Positions 3,675 through 54,700 of a DNA stretch of 64,000 bases are shown here, one piece after another. The DNA lies in assembly GCF_003018255.1 (NCBI RefSeq), contig NZ_CP027440.1; one strand, given 5' to 3'. A program made the position numbers and the translations under genes. Positions within the stretch are counted from its first letter, which is position 1. Each line of letters begins with the position of its first letter. The notes beneath the pieces are model-generated. The model was given only the letters and a program-made list of their open reading frames with translations, was not told where the DNA came from and did no database searches. Origin of the DNA: Escherichia coli (GTDB lineage: Bacteria > Pseudomonadota > Gammaproteobacteria > Enterobacterales > Enterobacteriaceae).

Positions 3675-4951
3675 TTCGCCTCCCCGATGCGCTCAAGCAC
3701 TGACTGCACCATCTGCATTCCTGTCTGACGCTCACGACTGACGGCTTCACTAAGTCGCGCATTCAGCGCCGGAAGCTGGCCTAAGGTATCCGCAACCATC
3801 GCTTGCAGGCTGCCGTCCAGTAAATGACGGATATCAATTGCCATCTCTGGTAGCCCCAGTTGTTGCATAATCCCGGCGGATTTATGTTCATAGTTGATGG
3901 CAATCGCCGGAGTGGCAAAGTTCATCGAGATAATGGCAGAGTGCAAGCGCGTACCGACGGTGAGTTCACAGGCCCCCAGAATTTTGCCCATTTCCAGATC
4001 ATTGAGTTCATCCATCACTACGTGGTAACGGGCAGGATCGCTGATGTGCTGGCGCAGGTTGAGCGCCACCATGCGGTCGTCTTTGTTATAGCTGTCGATG
4101 CCCGTACAGGTGGAAAGCGCAATCACCTGATAGCCTTCGTCGAGAATGCGATTGACCACCCCGGCAAAGGCTTTTTCATACGCTTGCTGAGTGGTGCCGA
4201 GACGTTTGTCGAACGGTGCCAGTTCGCGCAGGGTAATTGCCACCGTTTTCTGTTGTGCGGCAACGTCCAGCCAGTGTTGAACAGCATAGCTGGCGGTGAA
4301 GTCTTCAATGTGGTGATCGACCAGCCACGCGGTATCGACGCCATGTTCAACTTTTGCAGTGGTGATATTGCTGCGTTTCATCAAATCAAGGCTGACCGAT
4401 TCGCGCAGGATCAGCGCGTCGCAGTGACCAAAGACATAGTTCGCCAGTTGGTTAAATTGCTCATCCTGGAAGGGGCCGACGCTGTGACCAATCATAAACA
4501 GCGGCTTTTTCGCCATGAAAGTGCAAAGCGCATGTTCAAACTGCGGCACGCCATAGAGATCGACAAAAAACGATCCGCCGACCTGAATAATGGCGTCGTA
4601 ACCTGACAGCAGTCGCACGAAGTCAGTGAATCCCTGGGCGATGGCGATATTACGCAGCTTGCCAGTGTCGGTGACGCGTGAGAGCAATACCTGGTGCTGG
4701 TAGCGGCGACGGAGGACTTTTTTAACGCGCCCAACAACGCCCGCCGCGCTGTTGTGTTGTTTCATTTGCAGGAACAGCGGGTCGCCCATTACCGGGCGGT
4801 TGAGCAGCCAGGAAGAACTGACCGGATAGCGGCTCATCACGTCCACTTCGGCATGTGGATTGAGGATGTTGATGGCATCAAGTAAGCCACGCAGGATGGC
4901 GCTATCGCCACGATTGCCGCAAGTGTGGTTGCCCAGAATAAGTAATTTCAT
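3671..4951 (-). CDS. wcaK: colanic acid pyruvyl transferase WcaK
   Basis: 426 aa ORF (MKLLILGNHTCGNRGDSAIL...), polysaccharide pyruvyl transferase family. Confidence 0.9.
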   Translation of the reverse strand: MKLLILGNHTCGNRGDSAILRGLLDAINILNPHAEVDVMSRYPVSSSWLLNRPVMGDPLFLQMKQHNSAAGVVGRVKKVLRRRYQHQVLLSRVTDTGKLRNIAIAQGFTDFVRLLSGYDAIIQVGGSFFVDLYGVPQFEHALCTFMAKKPLFMIGHSVGPFQDEQFNQLANYVFGHCDALILRESVSLDLMKRSNITTAKVEHGVDTAWLVDHHIEDFTASYAVQHWLDVAAQQKTVAITLRELAPFDKRLGTTQQAYEKAFAGVVNRILDEGYQVIALSTCTGIDSYNKDDRMVALNLRQHISDPARYHVVMDELNDLEMGKILGACELTVGTRLHSAIISMNFATPAIAINYEHKSAGIMQQLGLPEMAIDIRHLLDGSLQAMVADTLGQLPALNARLSEAVSRERQTGMQMVQSVLERIGEAK

Positions 4952-4974: not shown

Positions 4975-5605
4975 AGGTGAGGCTGTGTTTGTTGTGTTCG
5001 TTGCCGTTTTTTGCCTGATGCGACGCTAACGCGTCTTATCAGACCTACAAGTCCCGAGCACAGAACCGTAGGCCGGATAAGGCGTTCACGCCGCATCCGG
5101 CATTCAGTGCCTGATGCGACGCTGACGCGTCTTATCAGGCCTACAAGATCCGAGCACAGAACCGTAGGACGGATAAGGCGTTCACGCCGCATCCGGCATT
5201 CAGTGCCTGATGCGACGCTGACGCGTCTTATCAGGCCTACAAGATCCGAGCACAGAACCGTAGGACGGATAAGGCGTTCACGCCGCATCCGGCATTCAGT
5301 GCCTGATGCGACGCTGACGCGTCTTATCAGGCCTACAAGACCCGAGCACAGAGCCGTAGGACGGATAAGGCGTTTTACGCCGCATCCGGCATTCAGTGCC
5401 TGATGCGACGCTGACGCGTCTTATCAGGCCTACAAGATCCGAGCACAGAACCGTAGGCCGGATAAGGCGTTCACGCCGCATCCGGCATTCAGTGCCTGAT
5501 GCGACGCTGGCGCGTCTTATCAGGCCTACAAGATCCAAGCCCAGCCCCCCAGGACGGATAAGGCGTTTTACGCCGCATCCGGCAACCGTTGCCGGAACCG
5601 AAAAC
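4975..5605. repeat. REP/BIME array, about six tandem ~98-bp units of paired inverted REP elements
   Basis: Motif gcctgatgcgacgctgacgcgtcttatcaggcctacaag...ggataaggcgttcacgccgcatccggc recurs at ~5004, 5110, 5208, 5300, 5398, 5494. Confidence 0.9.
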
Positions 5606-9911: not shown

Positions 9912-9999
9912 ATCGTTACCCTTTTTCAGGCAATAGTTGGCCCTGACCGAAGCGGCCAATTTTGTTTTTGTCGTTATTTACATCGCGGTTTCGCATTCA

Positions 10000-20480: not shown

Positions 20481-20585
<105 letters not shown>

Positions 20586-24527: not shown

Positions 24528-24539
24528 CACGCTACCGCC
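24528..24539 (-). promoter_or_regulatory. ops element (GGCGGTAGCGTG) within the JUMPstart sequence of the cps leader; RfaH-dependent antitermination site
   Basis: Plus strand reads cacgctaccgcc, the reverse complement of the ops consensus, about 180 nt upstream of wza start in the long leader. Confidence 0.8.
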
Positions 24540-24787
24540 CCTGGCTTTTTAGCTACCAATACACTGATTTAGCTTAATTTTTAAAACCCTCTCAACATAC
24601 AGTCGTTGATGAGAAAGGGTTATTGCGGAAATTAACTTCCGAATATAAGGTGACATTATGGTAATTGAATATTGGCTCTCCAATAATGCAGGAGGAAGTG
24701 TTACAGCTAACGGAATAGCAGGCAAGGTAACAATTCGGCAATTGGCTATTTTTAAGAATTATATTAAGTGTCATTCAATATGGTTTT

Positions 24788-24801: not shown

Positions 24802-25007
24802 GGTTGACAATATTTAATATAGTGTCTCCACATGCGATATTTCTTAAATAATGTTTTATTATTACCACTTTTAATTCAGGGATAATGTGAGGTTATAAAC
24901 CTCAAATAATATGAGATAAATAGTGCTGCAACATTGCATTTTTGCCCCGATTTATCCATGATCGAATTGTGACATTTGTCATACAACGAATAGGTTTTGT
25001 ACTTACT

Positions 25008-26591
25008 ATGGAATGGATTGCCGATCCGTCTATCTGGGCCGGGTTAATCACGCTGATTGTGATCGAACTGGTCCTCGGCATTGATAACCTGGTCTTTATT
25101 GCCATCCTCGCCGAAAAACTACCGCCGAAGCAGCGCGACCGCGCACGGGTTACCGGGCTGTTGCTGGCGATGTTAATGCGCCTGTTACTGCTGGCGTCAA
25201 TCTCCTGGCTGGTCACCCTGACTCAACCGCTGTTCAGCTTCCGCTCGTTTACCTTTAGCGCCCGCGACTTAATCATGCTGTTTGGTGGTTTCTTCCTGTT
25301 GTTCAAAGCCACGATGGAGCTGAACGAACGGCTGGAAGGGAAAGACAGCAATAACCCCACCCAACGCAAAGGTGCGAAGTTCTGGGGGGTGGTGACACAA
25401 ATTGTGGTACTGGACGCCATCTTCTCACTCGACTCGGTGATTACCGCCGTCGGGATGGTCGACCATTTACTGGTCATGATGGCCGCCGTGGTTATCGCTA
25501 TCAGCCTGATGTTGATGGCCAGCAAGCCATTAACGCAATTTGTTAACAGTCACCCGACCATCGTTATTCTCTGCCTAAGTTTCCTGTTGATGATTGGCTT
25601 TAGCCTGGTGGCGGAAGGTTTCGGCTTCGTCATTCCGAAAGGCTACCTGTACGCTGCCATTGGTTTCTCGGTGATGATCGAGGCGCTCAATCAGTTGGCT
25701 ATCTTTAACCGGCGACGTTTTCTTTCCGCTAATCAGACGCTGCGCCAGCGGACTACCGAAGCGGTAATGCGCCTGCTTAGCGGGCAAAAAGAAGATGCGG
25801 AACTGGACGCCGAAACCGCGTCCATGCTGGTGGATCATGGTAACCAGCAGATCTTTAATCCGCAGGAACGGCGGATGATTGAGCGGGTACTTAATCTTAA
25901 CCAGCGTACCGTCAGCAGCATTATGACGTCGCGCCACGATATTGAGCATATCGATCTCAACGCGCCGGAAGAAGAAATCCGCCAGTTACTGGAGCGAAAT
26001 CAGCATACGCGGCTTGTCGTTACTGATGGCGATGACGCAGAAGATTTGCTCGGTGTTGTTCACGTTATCGACCTGTTACAACAGTCTCTGCGCGGCGAAC
26101 CGCTCAACCTGCGGGTGTTGATTCGCCAGCCGCTGGTGTTCCCGGAAACCTTGCCGTTGTTACCTGCCCTGGAGCAGTTCCGTAATGCCCGCACACACTT
26201 TGCTTTTGTGGTGGATGAGTTTGGCTCGGTGGAAGGGATTGTGACATTAAGTGACGTCACTGAAACCATTGCCGGTAACTTACCGAACGAAGTGGAAGAG
26301 ATCGACGCCCGCCATGATATTCAGAAGAATGCGGACGGTTCCTGGACGGCGAATGGTCATATGCCGCTGGAAGATCTGGTGCAATATGTGCCGCTACCGC
26401 TGGATGAGAAACGCGAATATCACACCATTGCCGGGCTGTTGATGGAATATTTGCAACGTATTCCAAAACCTGGCGAAGAAGTTCAGGTGGGGGATTATTT
26501 GCTTAAAACGTTGCAGGTGGAAAGCCATCGCGTGCAGAAGGTGCAGATTATTCCGCTGCATAAGGATGGCGAGATGGAGTACGAGGTGTGA
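25008..26591 (+). CDS. yegH: TerC-family membrane protein with CBS and CorC domains, YegH
   Basis: ORF 24942-26591; start placed at [13 protein letters not shown] giving 527 aa. Confidence 0.85.
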
Positions 26592-26598
26592 TAAAACA

Positions 26599-26628
26599 TC
26601 AAATGCGCAGGTTCAAACTGCGCATTTG
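26599..26628 (+). terminator. hairpin downstream of yegH (10-bp perfect stem aaatgcgcag/ctgcgcattt)
   Basis: Inverted repeat seen directly; the following T-tract is weak, so intrinsic-terminator function is uncertain. Confidence 0.45.
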
Positions 26629-26665
26629 ATTTATACAAAATTTAGTATAATCTAAGGATGGAGTA

Positions 26666-34161: not shown

Positions 34162-34175
34162 GGCGTGCTTCTCCA

Positions 34176-34262
34176 TCGCCTGATACGACGCTAACGCGTC
34201 TTATCAGGCCTACAAATCGCTCATTCCCCAGGCCGGATAAGGCGCTCGCACCGCATCCGGCG
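34176..34262. repeat. REP element pair between dgcE and alkA
   Basis: gcctgatacgacgctaacgcgtcttatcaggcctac ... ggccggataaggcgctcgcaccgcatccggc. Confidence 0.8.
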
Positions 34263-34269
34263 ACCAACG

Positions 34270-35118
34270 TCATGCTTCGTCTGGTTGCCAGCCTTCCGTA
34301 TACCAGATATGCAACAGCGCATAAGAACGCAAGGGCTTCCAGCGTTCGGCATAACGGCGGATTTGTGCCGGTGTCATTCCCGGAAATCGCTGTTTAATCA
34401 GATAATCATCCGGCAGGAAAACATCTTTCGCCTGCCAGCCGCGCAAGGCGAAATAATTCGCCGTCCAGCGCCCGATACCCGGAAAAGTTTGCAGCGTTTT
34501 CATCGCCTGCTCCACATCGCCCGGTATTGTCATTGGTAAGGTGCCCTCCAGCGCCGCATTTGCCAGATGAATCAGCGCCTCTGCCCGTTTCAACGGCATA
34601 CCTAACGCTTTTAATGCCTGCGGATCTGCTGCTGCCAGCCGCTGAGGCGTGGGGAAGCAGACATAATCCGGAAAATCATCCAGCCTTTCGCCATAAAGCT
34701 GTGCCACTCTGGCGGTCAATTTTGCCGCCATCGCCACGCTCACCAGCTGGCCTAAAATCGCCCGCACGCCCTGCTCAAAAGCATCAACACAACCGGGTAA
34801 ACGCAATCCGGGCCGTGCCGCGCCTAACTTGCCCAACGCACCGTTAACAATCTGCGGGTTACATTGCAGATCAAACAGGCGGCTCATTTTCGCCAGACAC
34901 TCTGCGGCAACGGGTTCTAAACCTGCACTTAAATTTATGTGCAGAGTATGGCTGGCTATATCCGGAATAGCAGTCACCACGCCGCGACATTCGCCCACCG
35001 CCAGACTACGGGCATAATAATCGTCAGCGACCGTTTCCACACCGTTCACCGCACGGGCGGCGAGAAATCCCAACATCCACGACCAGTCATACGGCGGCTG
35101 CCAGTTCAGGGTATACAT
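34270..35118 (-). CDS. alkA: 3-methyladenine DNA glycosylase II
   Basis: 282 aa ORF (MYTLNWQPPYDWSWMLGFLAARAV...). Confidence 0.92.
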   Translation of the reverse strand: MYTLNWQPPYDWSWMLGFLAARAVNGVETVADDYYARSLAVGECRGVVTAIPDIASHTLHINLSAGLEPVAAECLAKMSRLFDLQCNPQIVNGALGKLGAARPGLRLPGCVDAFEQGVRAILGQLVSVAMAAKLTARVAQLYGERLDDFPDYVCFPTPQRLAAADPQALKALGMPLKRAEALIHLANAALEGTLPMTIPGDVEQAMKTLQTFPGIGRWTANYFALRGWQAKDVFLPDDYLIKQRFPGMTPAQIRRYAERWKPLRSYALLHIWYTEGWQPDEA

Positions 35119-35251
35119 CGCATCTCCTTGTTAATCCGCTTTCAGCATAAACGTTATTCAGACGCTACGCTTTGCTTTCATATTCCGGTTGTCGCGACGG
35201 CAACATTTCGCTAAAGTCACGCCCCTTCTTCACCGGCATGGGGATTATTTC

Positions 35252-36604
35252 GTGTTTATTGGTTTTGATTACGGTACAGCAAACTGTTCAGTGGCGGTCA
35301 TGCGCGACGGTAAGCCGCAATTACTGAAAATGGAAAACGACAGCACGCTGCTGCCTTCAATGCTTTGCGCGCCAACGCGTGAAGCGGTAAGCGAATGGCT
35401 GTACCGCCATCATGATGTTCCGGCAGACGACGATGAAACGCAGGCGCTGTTGCGTCGGGCGATTCGTTATAACCGCGAAGAAGATATCGATGTTACGGCG
35501 AAAAGCGTGCAGTTCGGTCTTTCCTCACTGGCACAGTACATTGATGATCCAGAAGAGGTGTGGTTTGTGAAATCACCAAAATCATTCCTCGGTGCCAGCG
35601 GCTTAAAACCGCAGCAGGTAGCGCTGTTTGAGGATCTGGTCTGCGCAATGATGTTGCACATTCGCCAGCAGGCGCAGGCGCAGCTGCCGGAGGCAATTAC
35701 TCAGGCGGTGATTGGTCGCCCGATCAACTTCCAGGGGCTGGGCGGCGATGAAGCAAACGCCCAGGCGCAAGGGATTCTGGAACGCGCGGCGAAGCGTGCC
35801 GGGTTTAAGGATGTGGTATTCCAGTACGAGCCGGTCGCGGCTGGGCTGGATTACGAAGCCACCTTGCAGGAAGAAAAACGGGTGCTGGTGGTGGATATCG
35901 GCGGTGGTACGACTGACTGTTCATTGCTGCTGATGGGGCCGCAGTGGCGTTCGCGTCTCGATCGTGAAGCCAGCCTGCTGGGTCACAGTGGTTGCCGTAT
36001 TGGCGGTAACGATCTGGATATCGCACTGGCGTTTAAAAACCTGATGCCGTTACTGGGCATGGGTGGCGAAACCGAAAAAGGCATCGCCCTGCCGATTCTG
36101 CCGTGGTGGAATGCGGTTGCCATCAACGACGTTCCTGCGCAAAGTGATTTCTACAGTAGTGCCAACGGTCGTCTGCTTAACGACCTGGTACGCGATGCCC
36201 GCGAACCGGAAAAAGTGGCCCTGTTACAGAAAGTCTGGCGTCAGCGTTTAAGCTATCGCCTGGTACGTAGCGCAGAAGAGAGCAAAATTGCGCTTTCAAG
36301 CGTAGCGGAAACCCGCGCCTCACTGCCGTTTATCAGCGATGAACTGGCTACGCTGATTAGCCAGCAAGGGCTGGAAAGCGCCCTCAGCCAGCCACTGGCG
36401 CGGATTCTGGAACAGGTGCAACTGGCGCTGGATAACGCCCAGGAAAAACCGGATGTTATCTATCTGACCGGCGGTAGCGCCCGTTCACCGCTGATTAAAA
36501 AAGCGCTGACAGAACAGTTGCCGGGCATTCCGATTGCAGGTGGCGATGACTTTGGCTCCGTCACCGCCGGGCTGGCACGCTGGGCGGAAGTGGTGTTTCG
36601 TTAA
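35252..36604 (+). CDS. yegD: Hsp70-family (actin-like ATPase) protein YegD
   Basis: ORF 35189-36604; start placed at MFIGFDYGTANCSVAV giving 450 aa; DnaK-like N-terminal motif. Confidence 0.85.
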   Translation: MFIGFDYGTANCSVAVMRDGKPQLLKMENDSTLLPSMLCAPTREAVSEWLYRHHDVPADDDETQALLRRAIRYNREEDIDVTAKSVQFGLSSLAQYIDDPEEVWFVKSPKSFLGASGLKPQQVALFEDLVCAMMLHIRQQAQAQLPEAITQAVIGRPINFQGLGGDEANAQAQGILERAAKRAGFKDVVFQYEPVAAGLDYEATLQEEKRVLVVDIGGGTTDCSLLLMGPQWRSRLDREASLLGHSGCRIGGNDLDIALAFKNLMPLLGMGGETEKGIALPILPWWNAVAINDVPAQSDFYSSANGRLLNDLVRDAREPEKVALLQKVWRQRLSYRLVRSAEESKIALSSVAETRASLPFISDELATLISQQGLESALSQPLARILEQVQLALDNAQEKPDVIYLTGGSARSPLIKKALTEQLPGIPIAGGDDFGSVTAGLARWAEVVFR

Positions 36605-36616
36605 TTGAAAACTGGC

Positions 36617-38566
36617 TCAGCAACGGCTTAAATCAGCCTGCGCCTGAGCCAGTTTTTCTGCCGCCTGACGTAGCGGTTCCATCAACGGCATGGTCCGTGC
36701 TGGAGCATGAAGGCGGAATCGCTGCAACTCTGTCGCACCGACATTCAGCGCCGATTCCAGCCGATGTCGTTTGGCGGCCATTTTTGCCATTACCGCTTGT
36801 CTGTCTGCAGGCGTTACCGCTTCGTTCGGCCTGAACACAAAACGGCGTTCACAGCTCGCTTTCCAGTCGATAACCGCCTGGGTCAGATGATCACCAAAAC
36901 CTTTCACTTGCTTAACGCTCCGTCGGGTAACATCCGCTGCTGTTTCAATACCAAAGGACCGTAACGCCGCTTTACGCGCAGGGCCAACGCCGGGAATAGA
37001 GGCAACATCAATAAAAAATCCCTCCAGAAACTTCTGCTTCTGCCGTTCCCTTGCGGTGTCCTGAAGTGCTGCCAGATCGCGCTTTTCTTCTTCCGGTAAC
37101 CCAAGAATTTCGTCCTTCATTTTTTCGAGCATCGTCCGTTTGGCGATAAAACCTTCCAGCCCGCCCAACTGCTGGATCTGGCTGACTAAATGGTCATAGT
37201 CCATTTTCGCGCGATTAAACGCCTCACGGCGTTGCTGGATTTCTGCTTTGTACGCTTTGCTTGTCAGGCTGCCAATAATCCAGATAGCCGCCAGCACAGG
37301 AACCAAAATAATATAACGTGGTTCTGTCTGAAGGCCGCAAAGCAGCAGCGATAACGCTGACAGTGCGATCTCAATCAGAATGATGTATTCACGCCTTAAC
37401 AGGCCTAAAGGAAGCGGCCTGCCAGTCGGTTGGAAATGATCGGGTAATGGTAATTGCAATGCTGGCGGTGCTACTGACGCCATCACCATCGCCCAGACTT
37501 TCGCCAGCACAAAATCACCGCTGGTGGTAATGACCTCTTCGCCGAGATCAATAAAATAGATAACGCCTTGATTATCCAGAGCACACCACGGGCAGTCAGC
37601 CAAATGACCGGGATAAACATGCATTGCCGAAACGGTACATTTCTTTAACTGTTGGCGTAGTAAATCAAGTGCCGCTACCCACGCTTTTGCCGTCGGACGC
37701 CCGGTTGCCACGCCACTTTCCGTGAATGCCTGCTGAAACATGGCTTCAACATCGCCCGGTAACATCGACAGCGGAATAGATCGTGGCGGCGGTTTTAAAC
37801 CACGTCGCTGATTATCTGACGCGTAGGCATAACGGAAATGGGCAATATCCGTCTCCAGTGCATTACCCGCATCAGAGACAAGCGGTACACCGGAATAAGG
37901 ATGCCGCCCACCAAACAAGACGTGAAAAATCAGCAACGCAAGGCCAAAATTATCGTGATTCGCGGTGCGTTCAAAGCCGACAAATGATGGCAAGGTTTGT
38001 TGCTCTGGCGGCGTAAAATGCGACACGCCGACTTCGCATAAATGCAGCGTGCCATTGGCGTTAATCTGAAAGGAGTCGCTATCAATCAACACCACTTTGC
38101 TGTCGCGACCTACCATAAAGCTGTTCTGGTTTACGTCACCCACGACGTGCCCGTGCTCGTGAATCGTAGCAAAAGATGAAGCAATATTGCGCGCAACATA
38201 GAGTAGAAAATCCCACGCACAATGAGGGTAACGTTGACGACGATGTGCCGGGCTATAGATCATATGAATCGGTTCTTTACCAGAAACTTTTGGCATCATA
38301 AAACCGATTACTTTTCCGCCTCGTCCACCGTGAAGCGTTGCCTGCGGCCAGGCGACATAATTCAACAACTGCGCGTCAGCTGTCGCAGCCATAAAGGCAA
38401 GTTTGTCCTGTTTTAAGGCGGGTGGCGGCGTGTGATAAATCTTGGCGACGCTATCGACAAACTCCTCGATATCATAAACCGCGCCTTCACCGCCTTTGCC
38501 CAGTTCACAGCCTGGCGTAACGCACTCACCAGTAGCAGTATATAAAGTGGGTTTCATGGTAACCAC
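36617..38566 (-). CDS. yegI: protein kinase-like protein YegI
   Basis: 649 aa ORF; kinase-like catalytic stretch (HGHVVGDVNQNSFMV, LIDSDSF), central TM segment, C-terminal helix-hairpin-helix-like region; overlaps yegK by 13 bp. Confidence 0.8.
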   Translation of the reverse strand: MVTMKPTLYTATGECVTPGCELGKGGEGAVYDIEEFVDSVAKIYHTPPPALKQDKLAFMAATADAQLLNYVAWPQATLHGGRGGKVIGFMMPKVSGKEPIHMIYSPAHRRQRYPHCAWDFLLYVARNIASSFATIHEHGHVVGDVNQNSFMVGRDSKVVLIDSDSFQINANGTLHLCEVGVSHFTPPEQQTLPSFVGFERTANHDNFGLALLIFHVLFGGRHPYSGVPLVSDAGNALETDIAHFRYAYASDNQRRGLKPPPRSIPLSMLPGDVEAMFQQAFTESGVATGRPTAKAWVAALDLLRQQLKKCTVSAMHVYPGHLADCPWCALDNQGVIYFIDLGEEVITTSGDFVLAKVWAMVMASVAPPALQLPLPDHFQPTGRPLPLGLLRREYIILIEIALSALSLLLCGLQTEPRYIILVPVLAAIWIIGSLTSKAYKAEIQQRREAFNRAKMDYDHLVSQIQQLGGLEGFIAKRTMLEKMKDEILGLPEEEKRDLAALQDTARERQKQKFLEGFFIDVASIPGVGPARKAALRSFGIETAADVTRRSVKQVKGFGDHLTQAVIDWKASCERRFVFRPNEAVTPADRQAVMAKMAAKRHRLESALNVGATELQRFRLHAPARTMPLMEPLRQAAEKLAQAQADLSRC

Positions 38567-39315
38567 AGCGCCAGTGCCAACGTTTTATCATCATCGGTAC
38601 GCTCGTTTACCGCCGGGCCGGACAAAAACTGCTTTAACAATTCAGGTAATAAATCGAGTTGTTCCTGCGTTGCTGACGCCAGCCCATTGAAAAACGGGGT
38701 AAAGAAAGGCACATGCGGAGAATTATCCAGCATATTTAACGCCAGCCGCTGGATACCATCCGTAAATGCTGCAACTTTGTGCGCACGCTCAGTGCTGGTG
38801 AAAGTTTCCAGTCTGGAAACGGCATCTTCATCGGTAATGAAGTGCGTCATATTGGTATATTCACCCACCATCGGCGTGAGCGGCAGTTGCAAACCGTGCC
38901 CCAAATCTACCACCACGCCGCCATCGCCAATCTGCATAATCAAGGTGCCATTAGCTGATGAAATCAATCCCAAAAACGTGCAGGCAAAATCGCGAACCGC
39001 TAATTCTTTGGCTTCCGCCTCGGCAAAAAGTCGCTGACGAATGGTCAGCACAATGTCCGTTGCGAGAACATCATTAAGCCCCAATTCCCCGCCCTGCACT
39101 TTTTGCGACATATAAGCCATCGCTTCATTGACGGCGAGCATCGCACCTTCGCCTCCCTGCGAGGCGCTACCTGCGCCATCAGCGACAAATACCGACAATA
39201 ATGGCTGCTGGTCATTTAACCAGGCAACCTGCATCTGGCAGGCATCCTGGCAAGGCAAGTCCGCGCTGATGTGCGACGTTCCAACGGTTGATGCATAGAC
39301 CAGACGCCAGCTCAC
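38554..39315 (-). CDS. yegK: PP2C-family Ser/Thr phosphatase YegK (PphC)
   Basis: 253 aa ORF with PP2C-like acidic metal-binding motifs (VADGAGS, FTDGI); 4-bp overlap with yegL. Confidence 0.8.
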
Positions 39316-39971
39316 ACTGACGTCCAGCCTTTTGGCGCTTCCAGCACAACTTCCGTTCCCGGCGTGGAGCGGGAAACCGAACGCAGCGAACTGGATAACC
39401 AGCTAAATAGTTCGCGGAATTGTAATCCTTGAAGAGGCAAAGGCTGACGAACGCTGATTTGGGCCAGCGTCTTCATATCCGCCCCCTGAACACCGATGGA
39501 AAAGAAGGCAAACTTCTTATCTTCTTCCCCCTGAAACACCTTGTTGGCAGCAGCCTGCCACTCATCGGTTGGTGCGCCATCGGTAATCAGGAAAATCCAC
39601 GGACGATAATAGGAAATACCATTGGCGCGATACTCACGTTTGCGCTCCTCAACCATATCCAGGGCTTTGGTAATGGCGGCCCCCATTGGTGTATCGCCCT
39701 GGGCAAACAGGATGGGCGGGAAAAAATTAGCGGCGCTGGTAAATGGTTGTTCCACATGCACCGGGCCGAACGTCACAATGCCGAGTTCCACTCTTTTTAA
39801 GGCCAGCGGATCGGCAAGCAGCTCATCGCGAAAGGTAACCAATCCGGCGTTAAGTTCATTAATAGGTCTACCGTTCATAGAACCAGAAACATCCAACAGC
39901 AAAATGCAGGGGCAACGTGGTTCCGGGTTACTGGCAAAATCGCTGGTGGCAAACGTGATTTGTTCGCTCAT
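39312..39971 (-). CDS. yegL: von Willebrand factor A domain protein YegL
   Basis: 219 aa ORF with MIDAS-like DxSxS motif (LLLDVSGSM). Confidence 0.8.
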
Positions 39972-40152
39972 AAGAAATCCTTTCTTAGAGAATTATTGAG
40001 GCCCGGTATCATACCGACTGCAACAATGAAATAAGAGCAAACGAAGAAACTTTCAGAATTAGGCCCGGCGGCGCAGAAAATTTTGCTATTCGCCTCGCAA
40101 GAACGGAGAGCCGTCGATTGACACTAAGGGCGGAGTGACATAATTTCAGGAG

Positions 40153-40298
40153 TGAGGGTTAGGGAGAGGTTTCCCCCTCCCCCTGGTGTTCTTAGTAAGC
40201 CTGGAAGCTAATCACTAAGAGTATCACCAGTATGATGACGTGCTTCATCATAACCCTTTCCTTATTAAAAGCCCTCTTCTCCGGGAGAGGGTTTCCCG
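40153..40298 (+). ncRNA. sib: Sib antitoxin sRNA, repeat unit 1 (antisense to ibs unit 1)
   Basis: -35 TTGACA (40118-40123), 17-bp spacer, -10 TAATTT (40141-40146); ends at hairpin ccctct...agaggg plus TTTCCCGTTT; ends approximate. Confidence 0.6.
40192..40251 (-). CDS. ibs: Ibs type I toxin peptide, unit 1 (MMKHVIILVILLVISFQAY)
   Basis: 19-codon hydrophobic ORF fully antisense to Sib unit 1; matches recalled Ibs family pattern MMK...LLVISFPAY. Confidence 0.7.
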   Translation of the reverse strand: MMKHVIILVILLVISFQAY

Positions 40299-40487
40299 TT
40301 TCAGCGTCCCGCTGAAATCGTCGGCTTACCTCCTTTCGCCCTGAATGCAGTCTATCGCTAACGCGTGAACAAAATAGTTTCCTCTGTGATTATTGCGTAA
40401 CGACTCGCAAAGAATATTTGCTGGCAGGATCGCAGACTACAAAGCCTGCGGATTGACAATCTTATCGTGAAGGCATAATTTCAGGAG

Positions 40488-40628
40488 TGAGGGTAGAGCG
40501 GGGTTTCCCCCGCCCTGGTAGTCTTAGTAAGCTGGCCAGCTAATAACTAAGAGCACCACGATGATGAGTAGCTTCATCATGACCCTTTCCTTATTTAAGG
40601 CCCCTTCCTCGGGAGGGGCTTTCCCGTT
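40488..40628 (+). ncRNA. sib: Sib antitoxin sRNA, repeat unit 2
   Basis: -35 TTGACA (40453-40458), 17-bp spacer, -10 TAATTT (40476-40481); terminator gccccttcctcgggaggggc plus T-tract. Confidence 0.6.
40524..40580 (-). CDS. ibs: Ibs type I toxin peptide, unit 2 (MMKLLIIVVLLVISWPAY)
   Basis: 18-codon hydrophobic ORF antisense to Sib unit 2. Confidence 0.7.
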   Translation of the reverse strand: MMKLLIIVVLLVISWPAY

Positions 40629-40815
40629 TCAGCGTCCCGCTGAAATCGGCGGCCTACCTCCTTTCGCCATGCAAGCAGTCTATCGCTAACTTGCAGATAA
40701 AATAGTTTCACATGTGATTATTGCGTAACGTCTCGCAAAGAATATTTGCTGGCAGGATCGCAGACTACAAAGCCTGCGGATTGACAATCTAATTGTGAAG
40801 GCATACTTTCAGGAG

Positions 40816-40956
40816 TGAGGGTAGAGCGGGGTTTCCCCCGCCCTGGTAGTCTTAGTAAGCCGGGAAGCTTATGACTAAGAGCACCACGATGATGATCCAC
40901 TTCATCATGACCCTTTCCTTATTTAAGGCCCCTTCCTCGGGAGGGGCTTTCCCGTT
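40816..40956 (+). ncRNA. sib: Sib antitoxin sRNA, repeat unit 3
   Basis: -35 TTGACA (40781-40786), weaker -10 TACTTT (40804-40809); same terminator hairpin as unit 2. Confidence 0.55.
40852..40908 (-). CDS. ibs: Ibs type I toxin peptide, unit 3 (MMKWIIIVVLLVISFPAY)
   Basis: 18-codon hydrophobic ORF antisense to Sib unit 3. Confidence 0.7.
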   Translation of the reverse strand: MMKWIIIVVLLVISFPAY

Positions 40957-41143
40957 TCAGCGTCCCGCTGAAATCATCGGCTTACCTCCTTTCGCCCTGA
41001 ATGCAGTCTATCGCTGACTTGCGGATAAAATAGTTTCACATGTGATTATTGCGTGACGTCTCGCAAAGAATATTTGCTGGCAGGATCGCAGACTGCAAAG
41101 CCTGCGGATTGACAATCGGACCGTGAAGGCATACTTTCAGGAG

Positions 41144-41287
41144 TGAGGGTAGAGCGGGGTTTCCCCCGCCCTGGTAGTCTTAGTAAGCTGGGTAGCTAAC
41201 GACTAAGAGCACCACGATGATGAGTATCTTCATCATGACCCTTTCCTTATTTAAGGCCCCTTCCTCGGGAGGGGCTTGCCCGTTTCA
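41144..41287 (+). ncRNA. sib: Sib antitoxin sRNA, repeat unit 4
   Basis: -35 TTGACA (41109-41114), -10 TACTTT (41132-41137); terminator hairpin followed by an interrupted T-tract (cttgcccgtttc). Confidence 0.5.
41180..41236 (-). CDS. ibs: Ibs type I toxin peptide, unit 4 (MMKILIIVVLLVVSYPAY)
   Basis: 18-codon hydrophobic ORF antisense to Sib unit 4. Confidence 0.7.
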   Translation of the reverse strand: MMKILIIVVLLVVSYPAY

Positions 41288-54583: not shown

Positions 54584-54613
54584 GCTGCATTTATTAAGGT
54601 TATCATCCGTTTC

Positions 54614-54700
54614 GCTGAAAAACATAACCCATAAAATGCTAGCTGTACCAGGAACCACCTCCTTAGCCTGTGTAATCTCCCTTACACGGGCTTATTTTTT
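54614..54700 (+). ncRNA. cyaR: CyaR (RyeE) Hfq-dependent sRNA
   Basis: 87-nt sequence gctgaaaaacataacccataaaatgctagctgtaccaggaaccacctccttagcctgtgtaatctcccttacacgggcttatttttt matches recalled CyaR, including terminator hairpin and U-tail. Confidence 0.88.
54674..54700. other. bacteriophage P2 attB core (locI), unoccupied
   Basis: Reverse complement is AAAAAATAAGCCCGTGTAAGGGAGATT, the 27-bp P2 att core as I recall it; overlaps the CyaR terminator. Confidence 0.55.

Follow-up and report, generated by a model that had tools for sequence, protein, structure and literature searches.

Where do the transcripts of two convergent genes end when their stop codons face each other across only 12 bp? The Escherichia coli genes yegD and yegI, which meet in this way within the 64,000-nucleotide stretch analysed here (contig NZ_CP027440.1, hereafter the window), raise this question. 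A reading of the same DNA made from its letters alone (the sequence-only reading) had seen no terminator between the two genes and had argued that their transcripts must overlap at the 3' ends unless termination occurs inside the opposing gene, with antisense interaction or transcriptional interference implied between an Hsp70-like gene and a kinase module. We propose a different answer, which we hold to be probable: that a single terminator-like hairpin, bidirectional and Rho-independent, spans the 12-bp gap and serves both yegD and yegI.

Geometry of the junction

The yegD coding sequence occupies 35252..36604 on the + strand and encodes a 450-aa Hsp70-family protein (Pfam HSP70, E=1e-24), ending in a TAA stop at 36602-36604. 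The coding sequence of the Ser/Thr kinase YegI runs towards it on the - strand from 38557 to 36617 (36617..38557); its TGA stop is the complement of 36617-36619, which reads TCA on the + strand, and is preceded by the C-terminal peptide ...EKLAQAQADLSRC, coded by 36620-36658. Beyond yegI lie the genes for the phosphatase PphC and then the vWA protein YegL. The sequence, the list of open reading frames and the RefSeq annotation all bear out the stop coordinates and the 12-bp spacing claimed earlier, and the RefSeq annotation of a strain that is 100% identical over 35100-38700 gives the same boundaries for both genes. The identities assigned from the letters alone, an Hsp70-like yegD and a kinase module of YegI, PphC and YegL, are likewise correct.

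The gap itself, TTGAAAACTGGC (36605..36616), was computed directly, as were the repeat, its fold, its conservation and its taxonomic distribution. The same gap is present in K-12 MG1655 (2149027-2149038), and it measures 11 bp in other E. coli lineages, where this length is found in one common allele. Among the four convergent pairs of large open reading frames in the window it is the shortest, at 12 bp versus 81, 108 and 745 bp.

A hairpin across the gap and the end of yegI

A repeat search found a perfect inverted repeat of 13 nt at 36608-36620 and 36644-36656, with arms that are 100% complementary and a spacer of 23 nt. The left arm, AAAACTGGCTCAG (36608..36620), covers the last nine nucleotides of the gap, the yegI stop codon and one nucleotide of a Cys codon, while the right arm, CTGAGCCAGTTTT (36644..36656), lies within yegI over the codons for E-K-L-A-Q. 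In other words, gap and yegI stop codon make up the left arm, and yegI contributes its last 13 codons as loop and right arm. The G+C-rich cores of the two arms (36612-36620 and 36644-36652) form a 9-bp stem, CUGGCUCAG/CUGAGCCAG, which is extended by A:U pairs, and the folds place a strain-variable apical mini-helix inside the spacer (36625..36638), in which GGCT at 36625-36628 pairs with AGCC at 36635-36638 around a 6-nt loop. Changes to CTGGC at 36612-36616, the non-coding part of the left core, could break the stem and leave both proteins unaltered.

The core is flanked by A4 on one side and T5 on the other (AAAA-stem...stem-TTTTT), between genes that converge on it. Read from the letters, this layout is the anatomy of a bidirectional intrinsic terminator. 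A U-rich tract directly follows the stem on both strands: on the yegD strand the stem abuts TTTTTCT (36653..36659, +; UUUUUCU in the RNA), and on the yegI strand it abuts UUUUCAAUUAA (36601..36611, -; the complement of 36611-36601), a weaker and shorter tract of four U followed by CAAUUAA. The earlier statement that no terminator lies between the genes is therefore true only in a trivial sense, since 12 bp is too short for one, and it misses a 13-nt inverted repeat with A and T tracts that spans the gap and the 3' end of yegI. Our result corrects the impression of a junction with no terminator.

The fold is stable on both strands. An 86-nt RNA folds at -30.7 kcal/mol on the + strand (z = -2.8 relative to shuffles) and at -34.5 kcal/mol on the - strand (z = -4.6, with 0/200 shuffles equally stable), and the core stem-loop by itself reaches -20.7 kcal/mol (+) and -25.1 kcal/mol (-). 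With 200 dinucleotide shuffles of the 64-kb window as the chance expectation, perfect inverted repeats of at least 13 nt with a loop of at most 40 nt occur three times in the window versus 0.065 expected, and the combined signature of an A tract, an 8-bp stem and a T tract is found at two loci in the window versus 0.03 expected. The yegD/yegI repeat is far beyond chance in the window.

A consensus terminator scan that allowed loops of 3-8 nt returned no match at the junction. Because this loop limit excludes a spacer of 23 nt between the arms, the scan misses the hairpin, and we rejected its silence as a true negative. The hairpin is nonetheless atypical for a strong intrinsic terminator, with its 23 nt between arms, an interior loop, and a weak and variable apical helix. 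The matches to Rfam families at the junction were noise only (STnc450 at 17 bits versus a gathering score of 37, plus a microRNA model) and were discarded.

Conservation and history of the junction

Comparison with eight other E. coli genomes found the core, TGGCTCAG/CTGAGCCA, and both flanking tracts preserved in seven of them. Strain CT29 has CTGGGCCA as its right arm and so forms a G-U pair on the yegD strand; the core hairpin also persists, with small changes in the flanking tracts, in clade E1V33 and strain E69, and MOD1-EC7003 has a weaker hairpin. Three alleles of the junction account for at least 1111, at least 2066 and at least 816 of 5426 genomes. Across 12 Escherichia sequences 87.7% of cells are paired, a level that column shuffles also reach (250/500), and there are two double changes only; with sequences this alike, and coding sequence making up half of the structure, the test gives no support from covariation. 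In the same 12 sequences only 79% of cells are paired in the apical mini-helix. The loop substitutions that distinguish strains are synonymous (GCT/GCA, CGT/CGC), which indicates that the tail of yegI is coding and that the nine non-coding bases are the side that has been matched to the coding arm.

The yegL-pphC-yegI module directly follows yegD only in Escherichia, and Citrobacter, Salmonella and other genera possess yegD and lack yegI. Judged by these comparisons, the tight junction is the boundary of an Escherichia-specific module, and the tight spacing looks like a by-product of that history. At 0.515-0.523 the G+C content of the module is near the average for the window (0.521), and a recent foreign origin is not apparent from composition. 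We considered whether the hairpin is an ancestral yegD terminator and rejected this, because what follows yegD in the other genera is unrelated (sib/ibs, REP-like elements, or hairpins of their own). In E. albertii most of yegI-pphC-yegL is deleted; the hairpin and T tract are still present after yegD, but the A tract, source of the U tract on the yegI strand, is lost. This single case, as far as sequence can tell, fits a role for the + strand hairpin that outlasted yegI. The module boundary is useful context for work on the YegI/PphC signalling pair.

Proposed termination and a probable effect of translation

From the hairpin we infer termination, the positions of the 3' ends, masking by ribosomes and a back-up by Rho. 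RNA from the yegD strand would form the 9-bp stem and then UUUUUCU; with the usual distance of 7-9 nt from stem base to release, the 3' end of yegD would fall at about 36657-36661, which is 53-57 nt past the stop codon and inside yegI. RNA from the yegI strand would form the complementary hairpin followed by UUUUCAAUUAA and would end near 36603-36608, either in the yegD stop codon or at the gap edge. In K-12 coordinates the two predicted ends are about 2149079-2149083 (yegD) and 2149025-2149030 (yegI). The mature RNAs would then overlap by some 50-60 nt, which is the hairpin itself, while read-through RNA from either gene would be untranslated antisense and probably a substrate for Rho. No entries for yegD or yegI 3' ends are present in the supplements of Adams 2021 Term-seq, TRS or SMRT-Cappable-seq.

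These predictions refine what had been deduced from geometry. The deduction that the two transcripts overlap at their 3' ends holds, and it agrees with the coverage-based ExcludonFinder analysis of 58 MG1655 RNA-seq samples, which includes yegD-yegI in its 165 convergent pairs with transcription units that overlap in 50% of the samples or more (PMC12288877). Termination inside the opposing gene is what we predict for yegD, whose hairpin and T tract lie in the last 13 codons of yegI, but the yegI end is predicted at the gap or the yegD stop. The alternative of 3' ends within the gap is thus half matched on paper, by a predicted yegI end at the gap edge or the yegD stop. The shared-hairpin arrangement is ordinary, and the pair is already catalogued for overlapping transcripts; what is gained is a set of concrete 3'-end predictions for two poorly studied E. 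coli genes.

This proposal is complicated by where the stop codons lie. Only 3-7 nt separate the yegD stop from the stem downstream of it, and on its own strand the yegI stop is part of the 3' arm. In a reporter carrying the tR2 terminator, a stop codon 5 bp upstream reduced efficiency from ~90% to <10%, and tR2 was also repressed when placed late in the coding region (PMC4824070). Because both stops are within 7 nt of the hairpin or inside it, and given the reporter work, leakiness is plausible at this junction: a ribosome close behind the polymerase would mask the hairpin, and termination would probably be leaky and dependent on translation. By analogy with tR2, the terminator may be largely disabled when yegD or yegI is well translated. 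It is conceivable, if extremely unlikely in our estimation, that the hairpin acts as a translation-gated two-way valve, where a ribosome translating yegI or yegD close behind the polymerase blocks folding and transcription runs antisense through the partner. If this were true, yegI read-through would go on in the sense direction into alkA, and the Ser/Thr kinase module would be expressed to the exclusion of the Hsp70-like protein, and vice versa. The locus is a clean example of a terminator-like hairpin that is partly coding and encloses a stop codon, and it could serve for the study of ribosome position and termination at a native locus.

Alternative explanations

Competing explanations of the junction differ in how much they ask of the hairpin. 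One, which we consider unlikely, is that it forms without useful termination: both polymerases enter the opposing gene, the untranslated antisense RNA is ended by Rho or decays, and the hairpin is at most a 3' stabiliser after processing. The location of both stops in the zone of ribosome repression (PMC4824070), the large interior loop and the weak U tract on the yegI strand are what this explanation expects, although weak expression of the genes (PMC13232886) suggests that transcription-translation coupling may be loose, and ribosome masking with it. In the + strand RNA antisense to yegI the C/G ratio is 1.2-1.9 from ~130 to 520 nt past the hairpin, which is a crude signature of Rho loading, but nearly every gene should show an excess of C over G in its antisense RNA. 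An in vitro sigma-S run-off array gave a signal for Z3239, annotated 'antisense of yegI' (PMC3141248), and the pair is called an excludon by coverage (PMC12288877); a coverage-based call of overlap, however, is nearly automatic at a 12-bp gap. Against a hairpin with no useful part in termination, a G+C stem set between an A tract and a T tract is a highly non-random combination, and it is conserved. A slim chance attaches to the idea that overlap has been selected as a functional excludon, with mutual repression of the kinase operon and the Hsp70-like gene through polymerase collision or RNase III cleavage of the duplex. The pair belongs to the core MG1655 excludome (PMC12288877), a spacing of 11-12 bp is maintained throughout E. 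coli, and translation-dependent leakiness would offer a route to couple yegD and yegI. However, conservation within a single species is no evidence of selection on overlap, the presence of yegD without yegI in Citrobacter and Salmonella argues that yegD does not depend on the arrangement, and p19 dsRNA capture in the excludome study failed to validate convergent pairs (PMC12288877). Standard growth is reported to give weak or no expression of either gene (PMC13232886), which would make collisions rare, and the literature searched yielded no expression data showing reciprocal regulation of the two. For yegD, recovery from stationary phase, yegJ overexpression and RyhB have been reported as leads to expression. 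We found nothing in support of the earlier suggestion that antisense interaction or transcriptional interference follows from the arrangement. With efficient termination, the overlap would be only the 50-60 nt of a hairpin that folds on itself.

Two further explanations turn on the hairpin itself. The chance is very slim, in our view, that it only pauses polymerase and that release needs head-on and trailing collisions, as proposed for overlapping bidirectional termination sites mapped by SEnd-seq. The model of the Liu laboratory does put an RNA hairpin at the overlap of convergent pairs (bioRxiv 10.1101/2022.10.23.513370), and the yegD/yegI anatomy, with its shared hairpin between convergent genes, is of that kind. 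Yet the sites of the model 'do not resemble intrinsic terminators' and it applies best to highly expressed pairs (bioRxiv 10.1101/2022.10.23.513370), whereas yegD/yegI has clear U tracts on both strands and is weakly expressed. Finally, the complementarity could be incidental, a leftover of insertion of the module beside yegD with no role in forming RNA 3' ends. The lack of support from covariation, the constraint on half of the repeat as coding sequence, and the coincidence of the gap with the boundary of a lineage-specific module would all be compatible with this. It is nevertheless highly improbable: at a given site, the chance that nine non-coding bases plus a stop codon would perfectly match a coding 13-mer at a distance of 23 nt is ~1e-6, the A and T tracts on the flanks add an independent coincidence, and the hairpin persists in E. 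albertii after deletion of yegI.

Relation to known elements

A shared bidirectional terminator-like hairpin, the explanation we prefer, places the junction alongside the bidirectional intrinsic terminators of E. coli convergent genes. Like these, it has a palindromic G+C-rich stem, A/T tracts and U after the hairpin on both strands, and it sits at the point where convergent genes meet, where the overlap of the terminated RNAs is as long as the hairpin (at yegD/yegI this is predicted). Unlike these, it does not sit in an intergenic spacer but overlaps the yegI stop and last 13 codons, its loop is large at 23 nt between arms, and its yegI-strand U tract is short. It also resembles the convergent excludons among which it is listed, in most of which a terminator located in the transcription unit of the neighbour accounts for the overlap (PMC12288877); TransTermHP terminators overlap the neighbour in 146 of the 165 pairs, a figure for the set as a whole that is not specific to yegD-yegI (PMC12288877). 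In a strict excludon expression is mutually exclusive, whereas for yegD-yegI only overlap is reported.

The nearness of the stop codons recalls ribosome-repressed terminators (PMC4824070) and the classical attenuators, in that folding behind a ribosome requires a distance of 10-15 nt and both stops are nearer to the hairpin than this. The tR2 study (PMC4824070), however, used a strongly expressed plasmid reporter, in contrast to the weakly expressed chromosomal genes here, and unlike classical attenuators the junction has no leader peptide or attenuation logic.

As a stable palindrome between convergent genes, the element is also reminiscent of REP/BIME palindromes, but it has no REP-like sequence, overlaps a coding sequence and carries A and T tracts. 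A search with a 221-nt query in sensitive mode located it at a median of one place per genome. Because it is single-copy it is not a REP-type repeat, and with no Rfam match above noise we rejected a REP element at this junction. The neighbouring dgcE-alkA gap in the window carries elements of the REP/BIME type.

A hairpin at the yegD/yegI junction

The genes yegD (Hsp70-family protein, + strand) and yegI (Ser/Thr kinase, - strand) end facing each other, with the yegD stop TAA at 36602-36604 on the + strand and the yegI stop TGA (TCA on the + strand) at 36617-36619 on the - strand, leaving a 12-bp gap, TTGAAAACTGGC, at 36605-36616. These coordinates and gene identities, taken from the sequence-only reading, agree with the sequence, the ORF list and the RefSeq annotation of an identical strain, which places the same boundaries. 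Within this stretch of E. coli chromosome, the region 35100-38700 shares 100% identity with several sequenced strains and 95-99% with most of the 5,423 matching genomes. K-12 MG1655 also has a 12-bp gap (2149027-2149038), and several lineages have one of 11 bp. Among the window's four convergent large-ORF pairs this gap is the shortest (12 vs 81, 108 and 745 bp).

It had been claimed that no terminator lies between the two genes. Twelve base pairs are indeed too short to hold one, but the statement is misleading, as a terminator-like hairpin straddles the junction. A repeat search returned a perfect 13-nt inverted repeat with arms 23 nt apart. The left arm, AAAACTGGCTCAG (36608-36620), covers 9 gap nucleotides, the whole yegI stop codon and a single base of the final Cys codon; the right arm, CTGAGCCAGTTTT (36644-36656), lies within yegI, and spacer and right arm encode the last 13 YegI residues, ...EKLAQAQADLSRC. 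The core of the stem, CTGGCTCAG/CTGAGCCAG, is G+C-rich and is flanked on the + strand by AAAA 5' and TTTTTCT 3'. The A tract 5' of the stem on the + strand thus becomes UUUUCAAUUAA directly after the same stem on the - strand. Judged from this layout, the hairpin is of the bidirectional intrinsic terminator type, and such terminators are standard at convergent gene pairs in E. coli.

The 86-nt junction RNA folds at -30.7 kcal/mol (z = -2.8) on the + strand and at -34.5 kcal/mol (z = -4.6; 0 of 200 shuffles as stable) on the - strand, and the core stem-loop by itself reaches -20.7 and -25.1 kcal/mol, respectively. The inverted repeat is not a chance feature. The window has three perfect inverted repeats whose arms are 13 nt or longer and whose loop is no longer than 40 nt, where 200 dinucleotide shuffles give an expectation of 0.065, and an A tract, an 8-bp stem and a T tract combine at two loci vs 0.03 expected. 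A consensus terminator scan gave no hit at the junction because it takes loops of 3-8 nt only. The element is single-copy per genome and matched no Rfam family.

Conservation and alleles

The hairpin core and both tracts are kept in K-12, CFT073 and O157:H7, as well as in three of the four further E. coli sampled. Strain CT29 differs by one right-arm change (CTGGGCCA), where the yegD-strand RNA can form a G-U pair and the yegI-strand RNA is mismatched. In clade E1V33 and strain E69 the core is intact and the flanking tracts are slightly altered; Escherichia sp. MOD1-EC7003 has a weaker form. The window allele, whose C at 36612 makes the 13-bp match perfect, is present in at least 1,111 of 5,426 genomes. 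The K-12 allele (at least 2,066 of the 5,426) has A for this C, so that an A·G mismatch separates the core from the A:U extension, and an allele with the 11-bp gap occurs in at least 816. Spacer differences between window and K-12 are synonymous (GCT/GCA, CGT/CGC). The yegI tail is thus coding sequence, and it is the non-coding bases that match it. In a 12-sequence pair count, 87.7% of cells were paired and covariation was no greater than in shuffles, the sequences being too alike for the test.

Predicted termination and transcript overlap

Intrinsic termination usually releases the RNA 7-9 nt past the stem. On this basis we predict that the yegD RNA would end at about 36657-36661, within yegI and 53-57 nt beyond the yegD stop, and the yegI RNA at about 36603-36608, either at the edge of the gap or on the yegD stop codon. 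The overlap between the mature RNAs would then amount to some 50-60 nt and be little more than the hairpin, into which each RNA folds by itself. Transcript overlap had been correctly deduced from the narrow gap, and is already published: both yegD-yegI and the neighbouring dgcE-alkA are among the 165 convergent excludons that ExcludonFinder detects in 50% or more of 58 MG1655 transcriptomes; for 146 of these the predicted terminator overlaps the transcription unit of the neighbour, and p19 dsRNA validation failed for convergent pairs (PMC12288877). Overlapping bidirectional termination sites are known genome-wide, as summarised in bioRxiv 10.1101/2022.10.23.513370. The putative yegD/yegI terminator would be an ordinary member of a well-known class.

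Antisense regulation or interference between the two genes, as the sequence-only reading proposed, is not favoured because the overlap is short and self-folding and the locus is reported to show little or no expression under standard growth conditions (PMC13232886). Low expression is probably also why the 3'-end mapping supplements searched hold no yegD or yegI entries.

Termination may be incomplete. The yegD stop precedes the stem by just 3-7 nt, and the 3' arm itself contains the yegI stop. When a stop codon was placed 5 bp upstream of the tR2 terminator in a reporter study, efficiency fell from ~90% to <10%, an effect relieved on uncoupling translation; terminators near the ends of coding regions were repressed as well (PMC4824070). 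Given this placement, termination at yegD/yegI is likely to be leaky whenever a ribosome is close behind the polymerase, and any read-through RNA would be antisense and untranslated. In the main rival explanation the hairpin has little effect and Rho ends such read-through. For several hundred nt the + strand RNA antisense to yegI has more C than G, a weak hint that Rho could serve as back-up. In E. albertii NBRC 107761, in which most of yegI is deleted, the hairpin and T tract still follow yegD and the A tract, source of the yegI-strand U tract, has been replaced; this single case fits a role for the hairpin in ending yegD transcripts that outlived yegI. We regard the Rho explanation as unlikely, and a shared, probably leaky, partly coding bidirectional intrinsic terminator as the best and a reasonably probable one. 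A 2011 in vitro run-off microarray reported a sigma-S-preferred signal at O157 ORF Z3239, "antisense of yegI" (PMC3141248), which might reflect, at about 36660-37000 on the + strand, yegD read-through or an 85-aa ORF at 36707-36964.

Lineage history of yegL-pphC-yegI

yegI adjoins yegD in Escherichia only; in Citrobacter, Salmonella and many other genera the sequence immediately 3' of yegD is unrelated, consisting outside Escherichia of sib/ibs, REP-like elements or separate hairpin-plus-T terminators. The 12-bp gap is thus the edge of a yegL-pphC-yegI module that is specific to this lineage. The module's G+C content is unremarkable. The E. albertii deletion (approximately window positions 36687-39902) removes most of yegI, all of pphC (phosphatase) and most of yegL (vWA protein), fusing the yegL 5' end to the last ~70 nt of yegI (L006, the E. 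albertii locus, 4354-4494).

In the window strain yegL-pphC-yegI looks like one operon: yegI overlaps the end of pphC both when read in its longest frame (GTG at 38566) and, by 4 nt, when read from its annotated start at 38557. This strain lacks yegJ (38554-38566; comparison locus L002, 11186-11647); in K-12 that gene separates yegI from pphC and is read from the other strand (PMC13232886). "E. coli" MEI4BO-21 (L090, NZ_CM149565.1), which probably falls outside E. coli proper, has a yegD of only ~77% DNA identity; an ibs gene and mdtA come immediately after it, and yegL-pphC-yegI is missing.

Other palindromes and RNA elements

Other strong palindromes in the window are either REP-like or located at gene ends. 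One of them, at 20502-20562, is REP-like: a perfect inverted repeat of 15 nt whose arms are 31 nt apart. A second, at 26598-26630, comes directly after the ORF 24942-26591; its 16-nt inverted repeat is flanked by A and T and resembles a bidirectional terminator too. The 108-bp gap of the convergent dgcE-alkA pair (34162-34269) is filled by two REP-like palindromes folding to -45 and -57 kcal/mol. The window alkA is an intact 282-aa ORF; in strain SCU-171, otherwise identical at the locus, an extra C in the alkA C run (window 34543) causes a frameshift, annotated as a pseudogene. Rfam matches include five tandem naRNA4 repeats (5071-5526), CyaR sRNA (54612-54697), and, on the - strand, a JUMPstart element (24528-24566) and an algC RNA motif (9916-9965). 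At 40118-41251, where K-12 has just sibA/ibsA and sibB/ibsB, the window strain carries four SIB_RNA/ibs toxin-antitoxin modules in tandem (Rfam, 137-150 bits each).
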